From contig JALGTY010000001.1 of assembly GCA_029821145.1 (NCBI GenBank), positions 1 to 48,795 on the forward strand: DNA of 48,795 nt. Reading direction: 5' to 3'. Below, piece after piece: positions 33,541 to 36,115 of the stretch; position 1 is the first letter of the stretch, and each line of letters begins with the position of its first letter. A program made the translations under genes and the position numbers. The DNA is from Candidatus Zipacnadia bacterium. Lineage in GTDB: Bacteria; Armatimonadota; Zipacnadia; Zipacnadales; UBA11051. Below the pieces are notes generated by a model. The model saw nothing but the letters and a program-made list of their open reading frames with translations, made no database searches and was not told the origin of the DNA.

Positions 33541-33600
33541 CCCTCACCCCCGACCTCACCCACTCCTTCGGAGTGGGTACCCGCCGCAGGGAGAGGGGAG
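33541..33600. repeat. CCCTCACCCC...GGGAGAGGG REP-like element with an internal perfect hairpin
   Basis: CCCTCACCCCCGACCTC [ACCCACTCC-TTC-GGAGTGGGT] ACCCGCCGCAGGGAGAGGGGAG. Confidence 0.5.
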
Positions 33601-33691: not shown

Positions 33692-33720
33692 TTGACATGG
33701 GCTGGGGTGTTGTCTATACT
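33692..33720 (+). promoter_or_regulatory. Near-consensus sigma70 promoter
   Basis: TTGACA-N17-TATACT with A-rich upstream tracts (AAAGAAAAAGGCAAAATAA). Confidence 0.8.
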
Positions 33721-33726
33721 GCGTAC

Positions 33727-33941
33727 AGGGTTGTATAGGAATAGTGGCTGCAGCCTAAACATAGCTTCACTCGCAGCACCCCACCCTAGTCTGCATCTTA
33801 GCTCGAAAAAGTCGCCCCCTTGACTTGCGCCCAGGCTAAGAGCAGACATGTGCCGCCCGACACCGTAACCAACTACGCAGGCAGGGCGGACGAAGTGCAG
33901 CCCGCCGGGCTTCTCCCACAGCCCGGCGGGTGTTGTCTTTT
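33727..33941 (+). ncRNA. Putative structured non-coding RNA (6S-like size, unassigned)
   Basis: Bounded by a strong promoter and a terminator, with no credible ORF. Long internal stem 33789-33802/33835-33847; 5' end can pair with 33896-33903. Confidence 0.55.
33900..33941 (+). terminator. Intrinsic terminator
   Basis: GCCCGCCGGGCT-TCTCCCAC-AGCCCGGCGGGT followed by GTTGTCTTTT. Confidence 0.75.
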
Positions 33942-34124
33942 ATTGGTTGAGCCGACATAGCTAGTGCTACTGCGGTGAAGTCGGCTCATGGCAGCGGGCC
34001 GTGCTCAGCGCTCGACCGACCTCTCCGGAAGGCAACGGCGACGCAGGCTGGAAGGCCTAAGCCACGCGAGGCACCGGTTCGGGCTGCCCTTTGACTTCGC
34101 ACTCGCATCCCTCATGCTCATACT

Positions 34125-34154
34125 TTGCCCCCGCAACACATTCTGTGGTACAAT
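34125..34154 (+). promoter_or_regulatory. Promoter for the 627-aa gene
   Basis: TTGCCC-N18-TACAAT with extended TG. Confidence 0.45.
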
Positions 34155-34231: not shown

Positions 34232-36115
34232 ATGTTGAATGAGGAAGAGATGGCCAGGCGGTACTTAGCCGATCTGCTGTTCGATATGCTCATTTACTGC
34301 CCTGGGCCTACCAGAAGCAAAGAACTGGCGGCGCGGCTGCCAGAAAAGCTCGATATTGCTGCGGAATTCGTTGAAACGGTCCTTACAGAGGCCTTTCGCT
34401 TCGCAACGGTCGGGGGGTCGTACGATATTGCGTACCGGCAGGTACTCCCGCAAAGACCGCTGGGCGGGGCGTTTGAGGCTGTGCTGAGCGGTTGTGGCAG
34501 ACCGATACCAATGGCGCTGTTGACCAGTGAACTGGTGCGTACCAAGAAGGGGAACGTGGCTTTCTTCCAGGAGCTGGTGGCGAGCGCCGTGCAAAGGGGT
34601 CAACTGGGCGAGCTTGACGATGAGTTCATATACCTGCCTGACTGGCTTTTCGTGCCCATGCCCGGCACCGACACTGAGCGGCTGCTATATCTCAACGGTC
34701 TGACTGAGGATACGGACCTCGCCGAGGTCATGGATACTTGCACGAATGAAAAGCTCGGCTCGCGCAGCCTCACTGAAACCGCTTACGCGGTCCTCAAGGC
34801 CGCAGAGCGCTCGCTATCCAATAAGGCGCTGGGCTTTCTGGTCGGGTGCCACCAGGGCGAGAAATACGACCCGGCCGAGTTGCTGCGTCAGATGGTATAT
34901 GATGAGGAGAAACGCTTTGTGTGCGTATCCGGTCCCACCTGGATACTGGGCGAGTGGGTCGCCGATCTGCAAGAGTCGCTGCGCAAGCAGGCACCCAAGG
35001 CTGAGGAGCAGGAGCACGAGGTTGACATCGAGCAGATGCTTGCCAAGGAGATACCCGCTGATAAGCGCTATGAGCTATCCGAGGAAGAGACTGCGGGCGT
35101 AATGGCGCTGGTCGAAAACTCCAAAGCGCCTTTTACTATCGAGCAGATTCTGGCCGATGTCCTTGGCTTGACGCCCAATCAGCGCAAATATCCGCCGGCT
35201 GCGCAGGCACTGGAGCAACTGCTTCTCGTCGTGCAGAGCGTGAAGAAGCTGCAACCGGGCCGTTACCTGCGAACTGCCGCGATACCGTTGTGGGCCAGGG
35301 CAATGCCTGAAGCCCTGCTGCCAGATGAATGGATCGCGAGACTCAGCAAAGAAGGCGAACTTCTTTCGGATGACGTTATTCTGCATCCAGACGGCCTGAC
35401 GCCGGAAGCTCTGGAAGCAGCCGCCGAGCAATACTACGACGATGTCGGCGAGCTCTACGTAGCGCCGGTGGCAGCCGACACCGCGCAGGAGACGCTGACC
35501 TATCCCGTGCTGTATCACCACTACTTGGCCGGCACCATCAAGCTCCGGACAATGGACAGTGACTTTTTCGCCGAGGAAGATTCACTGACGATGGTCAATT
35601 TCCACTGCGATGACCAAGAGCTGCTCGGTTTGTGGCTCAATAAGGATACCGGGCTCATATACGGCCTGGCAGCCTGGTATCAGACGCATCTGCCCCCATC
35701 CGGGGCGCTGCTGACCATCACGAAGGCTGACGCCGCTGGCCGCTACGTGTTGCAGTATGGCGACGAGACCGATGTGCAGACGTATATCGGCAGAGAGAGT
35801 CTGCAGGAGCTGTTGATCTGGCGGGAGCGCTTTAGTCACAGGCCCACCTCACTGAGAGAGCTCATTGAGTTGCTACTCGCCGACGACAAGGGGCTCCCGT
35901 TCAGCCAGTTGTGGGCCCAGCTCAATGTCATCCGCCGCACCACGCGAGCACAGCTTGCCTCGGTGCTGAGCTTCTATCACTGCTTCGGATTCGGCGAGGG
36001 TAATCGCTGGTACCTGGACGCCGACAGGATCGCGGATGGGTATGACTGCGAAAAGCTGCAACATGTCGTGGGGCTTGATGAGCTGTTAGTTGAAGCCGAC
36101 GAGGCTGACGAATAG
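34232..36115 (+). CDS. Hypothetical cytoplasmic protein with repeated winged-helix (HARE-HTH/RNAP delta-like) units
   Basis: SD GGAGG, 627 aa, no signal peptide. About five helix-helix-helix-wing units, e.g. DEEKRFVCVSGPTWILGEW and YHCFGFGEGNRWYL. The CDS is solid; the domain call is inference. Confidence 0.7.
   Translation: MLNEEEMARRYLADLLFDMLIYCPGPTRSKELAARLPEKLDIAAEFVETVLTEAFRFATVGGSYDIAYRQVLPQRPLGGAFEAVLSGCGRPIPMALLTSELVRTKKGNVAFFQELVASAVQRGQLGELDDEFIYLPDWLFVPMPGTDTERLLYLNGLTEDTDLAEVMDTCTNEKLGSRSLTETAYAVLKAAERSLSNKALGFLVGCHQGEKYDPAELLRQMVYDEEKRFVCVSGPTWILGEWVADLQESLRKQAPKAEEQEHEVDIEQMLAKEIPADKRYELSEEETAGVMALVENSKAPFTIEQILADVLGLTPNQRKYPPAAQALEQLLLVVQSVKKLQPGRYLRTAAIPLWARAMPEALLPDEWIARLSKEGELLSDDVILHPDGLTPEALEAAAEQYYDDVGELYVAPVAADTAQETLTYPVLYHHYLAGTIKLRTMDSDFFAEEDSLTMVNFHCDDQELLGLWLNKDTGLIYGLAAWYQTHLPPSGALLTITKADAAGRYVLQYGDETDVQTYIGRESLQELLIWRERFSHRPTSLRELIELLLADDKGLPFSQLWAQLNVIRRTTRAQLASVLSFYHCFGFGEGNRWYLDADRIADGYDCEKLQHVVGLDELLVEADEADE

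Follow-up and report, generated by a model that had tools for sequence, protein, structure and literature searches.

What is encoded by a stretch of about 215 bp that has a strong promoter and a terminator and no evident gene between them? The stretch belongs to the genome of a Candidatus Zipacnadia bacterium (Armatimonadota; assembly GCA_029821145.1) and lies in the first 48,795 nucleotides of contig JALGTY010000001.1, referred to below as the window. The assembly is 87% complete with a contamination estimate of 7%, in line with which it contains two different 16S rRNA sequences (C374, C509). A preliminary description of the window had read the stretch as a complete transcription unit without an ORF, making either a divergent 6S RNA or a new class of non-coding RNA. 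Our analysis indicates that it is almost certainly a real, free-standing non-coding RNA gene, and that its product is a new RNA family.

Gene structure

Table 1. Features of the RNA locus, in coordinates of the window
Feature	Position	Strand	Remarks
Sigma-70-type promoter TTGACA-N17-TATACT	33692..33720	+	Predicted +1 near 33727; nearly all homologs inspected have a TTGAC promoter in front
Predicted non-coding RNA, ~215 nt	33727..33941	+	203-227 nt in 43 homologs; metatranscriptome contigs at 33736-33891
Inverted repeat TGTNYAR-N16-YTRNACA, likely DNA operator	33732..33761	.	Same motif upstream of gyrB
Operator spacer; RNA-level alternative helix with 3' base of domain 2 possible	33740..33753	+	
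Domain 2, encloses C-rich region	33789..33847	+	Outer helix 33789-94/33842-47, inner helix 33796-802/33835-41
Small hairpin AAGUC/GACUU with unpaired CCCCC loop (33815-33819), then GCGCCCA bulge	33809..33833	+	
Domain 3 hairpin CCGCCC/GGGCGG	33853..33889	+	Large loop with conserved CAG
Intrinsic terminator	33900..33941	+	C-rich loop CUCCCAC (33913-33919), U tail

The TTGACA-N17-TATACT promoter lies where the preliminary description had put it (33692-33720) and matches 11 of the 12 consensus bases. Promoter-like sites matching at least 9 of 12 number four in 2.5 kb, compared with 0.7 in shuffled sequence. The 12-bp terminator is likewise in place, with its 12 pairs at 33900-33931 followed by the tail GTTGTCTTTT; terminator-like sites by themselves are not above chance (2 seen, 2.3 expected). 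What supports the proposal of a complete, ORF-less unit for a new non-coding RNA is the conservation of promoter, covarying stems and terminator throughout the order. A further inverted repeat, GAGCCGAC ... GTCGGCTC, is found directly past the terminator (33949-33988, + strand), and a palindromic element upstream of the promoter (33555-33600) resembles one on contig C308 of the same genome.

Transcription has a weak hint in its favour. One contig of 153-156 nt, wholly within 33736-33891 and with 9 differences from the window, turned up in each of three wetland metatranscriptomes, and along a 20-kb stretch in the same runs these were the only pieces to match end to end (1 of 17, 1 of 38 and 1 of 8); the runs had been chosen for containing the RNA, carry the same variant, may stem from a single campaign, and give contigs that carry no information on ends, strand or level. 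Two further runs (X4 and X5) had no piece on the RNA, which is not evidence of absence.

Distribution

With covariance models the RNA is found in 58 of the order's 66 other genomes, and each of the seven families has it. Model R2 alone finds 57; model R3 adds one more (G023), with promoter and terminator. In the same 66 genomes 6S RNA was found in 52, so that the new RNA is about as universal as 6S. There is nearly always one copy per genome. Genome G055 has two full copies, both with promoters (L140, L149; contamination estimate 5%), and G025 has an extra fragment of the 5' domain that has no promoter (L130). Exact matches to the RNA core occur in records labelled Armatimonadia, Candidatus Zipacnadia and candidate division WS1, and of the 16 found in a set of 185,579 species genomes, 15 belong to true homologs. 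The core also matches a Planctomycetota record (L087) and a viral contig (L120), neither of which contains a homolog.

Outside the order a single homolog was recognized, with promoter and terminator, in one of 12 genomes of the class (G335). With R3, ten of the other 11 class genomes yielded no more than weak hits, of which the 6 inspected have no promoter. Among 138 genomes sampled outside the order R2 gave one weak partial hit, and the 136 taken from the rest of the phylum yielded nothing stronger than weak hits. R3 gave 8 hits, with E-values of 0.004-0.09; the 7 inspected lack promoter and terminator and are not homologs. The range given here is that among the genomes searched, which does not in itself show absence elsewhere. 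Base-pairing bacterial small RNAs usually turn over within genera or families. Retention in seven families at a frequency close to that of 6S suggests that this RNA likely does something basic.

Secondary structure and covariation

The 215-nt RNA has a predicted folding energy of -86.4 kcal/mol (z = -3.37 against shuffled sequences). All the internal stems named in the preliminary description form in the predicted fold of the full transcript with a pair probability of at least 0.97: the two parts of the 13-bp stem at 0.999 and 0.998, AAGUC/GACUU at 0.987, CCGCCC/GGGCGG at 0.999, CGUA/UACG at 0.97 and the terminator at 0.97. It was also suggested that the 5' segment GGGUUGUA pairs with UGCAGCCC near the 3' end. 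Such a closing helix is possible, with a probability of 0.987 only when the terminator is removed; it competes with the base of the terminator, has a probability of 0.007 in the full RNA and does not covary, cognate and non-cognate pairs showing no difference in 57 homologs (z = 0.3).

The covariation across related genomes that the same description had called for is strong in the stems. In 43 diverse homologs, in an alignment fitted to a model, 90.7% of cells are paired, compared with 32-41% when partners are slid, and 34 of 38 pairs show changes on both sides; a further alignment gave a similar result. Because such alignments had been fitted to a model, we added a duplex test that depends little on the alignment, in which the energies of cognate and non-cognate segment pairs were compared in 57 homologs; the other 9 of the 66 hits were partial, misaligned or more than 95% identical. 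The z values, inflated by shared ancestry, are -12.1 for the outer and -8.7 for the inner helix of domain 2, -10.8 for domain 3 and -4.5 for the small C-loop hairpin. According to these models, the conserved fold is a series of tandem hairpins with C-rich loops and not the rod of 6S RNA.

The same test shows covariation between the 5' segment at nucleotides 16-29 and the 3' base of domain 2 (z = -7.1; 1.0 and -0.1 for two control regions), with duplex energies of -9.75 kcal/mol for cognate and -7.32 kcal/mol for non-cognate pairs. This long-range helix is strong in families f2, f4, f5 and f6, the last of which contains both partners, and weak in f1 and f7 and in the present genome. In three homologs (L135, L137, L141) it takes the place of the local partner, which suggests two alternative helices built on one and the same strand of domain 2. 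An initial model of the 5' domain, with pairing to CACCCU and CGCAG, fits family f1 and not the order (z = -1.4) and was rejected.

Coding potential and genomic neighbourhood

The layout leaves room for two readings other than an independent RNA. A riboswitch or attenuator leader of the downstream gene would have a promoter, alternative helices and a terminator in that order, as this locus does; however, the terminator is not part of the alternative helix, and the next gene in the window has its own promoter-like site at 34125-34154. Among 103 candidate downstream ORFs from 58 loci, Pfam matches belong to 20 families that are unrelated to one another and lie on either strand, and in several genomes the downstream gene is convergent. 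We consider a leader highly improbable. Still less probable is a small-peptide mRNA, a cis-antisense RNA or a type I antitoxin. A TTG at +5 does open 30 codons in this genome, and in 34 of 43 homologs it starts peptides, but these range from 1 to 72 residues, the TTG has no Shine-Dalgarno site and no coding frame is conserved among the 43. No overlapping or neighbouring gene is conserved either, the upstream ABC-2 operon being kept only in part of family f1, and no true homolog of the core was found in viral contigs. The 20 unrelated downstream families and the lack of a conserved frame together argue against a riboswitch, an antisense RNA and a peptide gene.

The neighbourhood has several further features. 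A 627-aa ORF at 34232-36115 (+ strand) has no Pfam or NCBIfam match and adjoins the RNA downstream in only three species. The RNA lies 3' of rpsE in three genomes of two families (L064, L071, L075), before tRNA-Asp in three genomes (L057, L059, L060) and before rpsT in one (L123). In G028 an RNase P RNA gene with two long insertions follows about 380 bp downstream of the RNA (L122:619-1123, - strand). On one short metagenome contig (L114:117-345, - strand) tRNA-Arg(CCT) replaces the promoter and the 5' domain, with domain 2, domain 3 and the terminator coming directly after it; either a rearrangement or a chimeric assembly might account for this.

Relationship to known RNA families

Rfam, searched with 4227 families including 6S as the preliminary description had advised, gave no match for the window at the gathering thresholds, for the region at E-values up to 10, or for the RNA at 12 diverse homolog loci. 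The RNA thus stays uncatalogued. The suggestion of a divergent 6S RNA is not supported: the genome has a canonical 6S RNA at another locus (contig C314, 73.2 bits), the RNA itself has no RF00013 score, and its tandem-hairpin fold has no conserved helix between the 5' and 3' ends. Nor is it the SRP RNA, RNase P RNA or tmRNA of this genome, the copies of which lie at other loci, each scoring above its family cut-off.

Lineage-wide orphan structured RNAs such as the raiA motif and OLE offer a parallel, being likewise non-coding, conserved in structure and of housekeeping-like distribution; unlike these, the present RNA is limited, among the genomes searched, to one order and one other genome. In the literature we found no paper on a non-coding RNA, RNA motif or regulon of Armatimonadota (Armatimonadetes), though subscription papers and supplements could hold such a motif; the main texts of the large discovery papers on non-coding RNAs that were considered do not mention the phylum.

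A probable operator shared with gyrB

The most invariant bases of the RNA locus form the inverted repeat TGTNYAR-N16-YTRNACA within the first 35 nt, found with at most one mismatch in 48 of the 66 RNA hits. Its spacer is fixed in length (16 in 32 of 43 homologs) while its sequence varies. No compensatory change is seen in the outer three arm pairs, and the two flanking positions pair in only 27 of 55 and 32 of 55 cases. As an RNA hairpin the repeat has a median probability of 0.0; the probability exceeds 0.5 in 12 of 42 homologs, and for the other 30 no such hairpin is predicted. The exact motif in G019 lies inside the promoter, 10 bp after the start of the -35 box and outside the RNA, and weaker copies are placed likewise in family f7. 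The fixed spacer, the uncompensated arms, the unformed hairpin and the position in G019 point to a site in DNA rather than to a hairpin in the RNA, and on this pattern of conservation the repeat is probably a DNA operator.

A matrix built only from the RNA loci also picks out the region upstream of gyrB. Scores of at least 12 occur there in 15 of 29 genomes (450-bp search windows, one of them uninformative), compared with 0-4 at 13 other spacings, and in 6 of 20 further genomes (600-bp search windows), compared with 0-1 at 13 other spacings. In total the motif precedes gyrB in 21 of 49 genomes, the score being below 12 in 28. The present genome also has an exact copy upstream of gyrB. Of 27 gyrB sites scoring at least 9, 25 start 70-73, 81-83, 94-96 or 107 bp before the -35 box, in steps of about one helical turn; an outlier at -265 in G052 is counted among the 27. 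Genomes that lack the divergent oxidoreductase gene still have the site. Nothing relevant to the shared motif was found in the literature on gyrB.

Genome-wide, the motif is only modestly enriched (147 sites in 67 genomes, compared with 105 for the reversed control, an excess of about the number of RNA sites themselves), suggesting that the regulon is small. A scan of sites by position at 127 strong promoters of this genome convincingly adds only nrdJ; one half-site of the motif resembles a -10 box, which inflates promoter matches. A comparison of spacers in this genome gave 6 intergenic sites, against 0-4 at other spacers, and is only suggestive, some of the sites being copies of one repeat. 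Candidate intergenic copies of the operator, single or paired, precede pcrA, nrdD, nrdJ and a PQQ-repeat gene, and others precede an HTH_17 and replication-O pair and a YukD/ThiF pair, as well as genes that, by names read from sequence, are spoVS-, cysK-, RNase H- and zinc alcohol dehydrogenase-like (all of these at L199/L200, L220, L219/L233, L221/L231, L223, L241/L245 and L267, and on C394, C178, C404 and C575 of this genome). A repeated palindromic intergenic element also scores on the matrix (C9:15467, C212:7446, C590:3808). In a genome of another order (G308, L194), an exact operator match is followed by bases like those of the 5' domain, with no promoter or downstream domains.

The operator appears to differ from several known sites. 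It is presumably not a canonical DnaA box. The LexA-type box is unlike it: in this genome CGAAC-N4-GTTTG and a GTTCG half-site, similar to the Bacillota-type LexA box, flank the lexA promoter (L300, C280). The BirA site, TGT...ACA, a long-spacer operator, shares the inverted TGT/ACA arms and an unconstrained spacer of 14-16 bp, but its inner bases differ, and here the genes concerned are gyrB and the RNA and not those of biotin. With its 16-bp spacer and its occurrence at gyrB, the operator is presumably also unlike the Rex box.

Possible functions of the RNA

We tentatively favour, as plausible, a regulatory RNA that is repressed at its start site by a factor also binding upstream of gyrB and that acts through its C-rich loops on ribosome-binding sites. 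A putative DNA-binding protein would repress the RNA gene at the inverted repeat just after the start site. At gyrB the same factor would act from about 70-107 bp before the -35 box, the position of an activator or architectural protein. With the repeat in a repressor position at the RNA and in an activator or architectural position at gyrB, one factor could lower the RNA while acting on gyrase. The exposed C-rich loops might then pair with the G-rich ribosome-binding sites of other mRNAs, and the RNA may switch between the two alternative helices that share one strand of domain 2.

The closest known parallel is RsaE/RoxS of Bacillota, which is shorter than this RNA and to which Rfam indicates no homology, neither for the region nor for the 12 homolog loci. 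In RoxS, according to PMC5419742, C-rich regions pair with Shine-Dalgarno sites and a Rex site lies downstream of the promoter. Both RNAs come from free-standing genes that end in a terminator of their own, both have several C-rich tracts that stay unpaired, and in both a site of the repressor type follows closely on the promoter; the present RNA differs in having a covarying multi-helix fold and an alternative long-range helix. Of the 66 hits, 55 have the C-rich tract of domain 2, which is predicted to be unpaired, with a median probability of 0.88 (above 0.7 in 27 of 36). Among 43 homologs the tract is CCCCC in 18 and CCUCC in 15, the CCUCC(U) loop of the latter 15 being anti-Shine-Dalgarno-like. 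In 11 of the 66 hits, several of them in genera g12, g22 and g23, the tract is absent and the fold is kept. Hfq was found in 48 of the 66 other genomes of the order and not in families f2 and f7 and genus g7, which keep the RNA. A scan for targets in this genome gave a best z of about -3.6 among 3010 crudely defined start regions, ordinary for that number. The gyrB leader was tried as a target and rejected, with no cognate signal (z = 0.33, for the homologs from which the loop could be extracted), and exact matching found no complementarity between the core loop and helix 15 of 16S rRNA.

The alternatives to such a pairing RNA are RNAs that work through a protein. One is a decoy or scaffold whose fold counts for more than any seed; it might be the same factor that is decoyed, by way of an operator-like 5' hairpin. 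A fold kept throughout the order with a loop sequence that varies is also what a protein-binding RNA would show. Retention like that of 6S (58 against 52 of 66 genomes), a length held at 203-227 nt, helices that persist where the C-rich tract is lost, presence in the lineages in which Hfq was not found, the covarying long-range helix and the 5' hairpin of 12 homologs all agree with it. Against it, the hairpin is unpredicted in the remaining 30 of 42 and the motif lies outside the transcript in G019. Signatures of some known protein-binding RNAs were also not found: a CsrB/RsmZ-like sponge is rejected with 0.16 unpaired GGA per RNA and at most 1, although CsrA is present; AAN repeats are absent from the RNA; and a bacterial Y RNA is rejected, since TROVE/Ro60 was not found in this 87%-complete genome and pairing of the ends is not conserved. 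We regard the decoy or scaffold as possible, a close rival that is somewhat less likely than the pairing RNA. It appears very unlikely that the RNA is another polymerase-binding RNA of the 6S or Ms1 kind. Such an RNA would share with 6S (RF00013) and Ms1 the size of about 200 nt, the single copy, the strong sigma-70-type promoter and the near-universal presence in the lineage, and without its terminator the RNA of this genome does close 5' to 3'. However, a true 6S coexists elsewhere, neither the RNA nor its 12 diverse homologs has an Rfam score, the closing helix does not covary, and there is no conserved rod or long hairpin with a central bubble, the feature that PMC9130861 names for 6S.

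A more far-reaching version of the regulatory RNA seems unlikely: a new class of switching RNA, as universal in its order as 6S, wired into the control of DNA topology, in which one factor would repress the RNA and act at gyrB, and the RNA would set the output of gyrase by feedback, either as an operator-mimicking decoy or by way of its C-rich loops. The reach of the finding is one order, known here from metagenome-assembled genomes, and the family can already be modelled from about 60 homologs. The shared operator appears to be a transcription-factor motif undescribed in Armatimonadota, and it offers a concrete, testable link between this RNA and the expression of gyrase.
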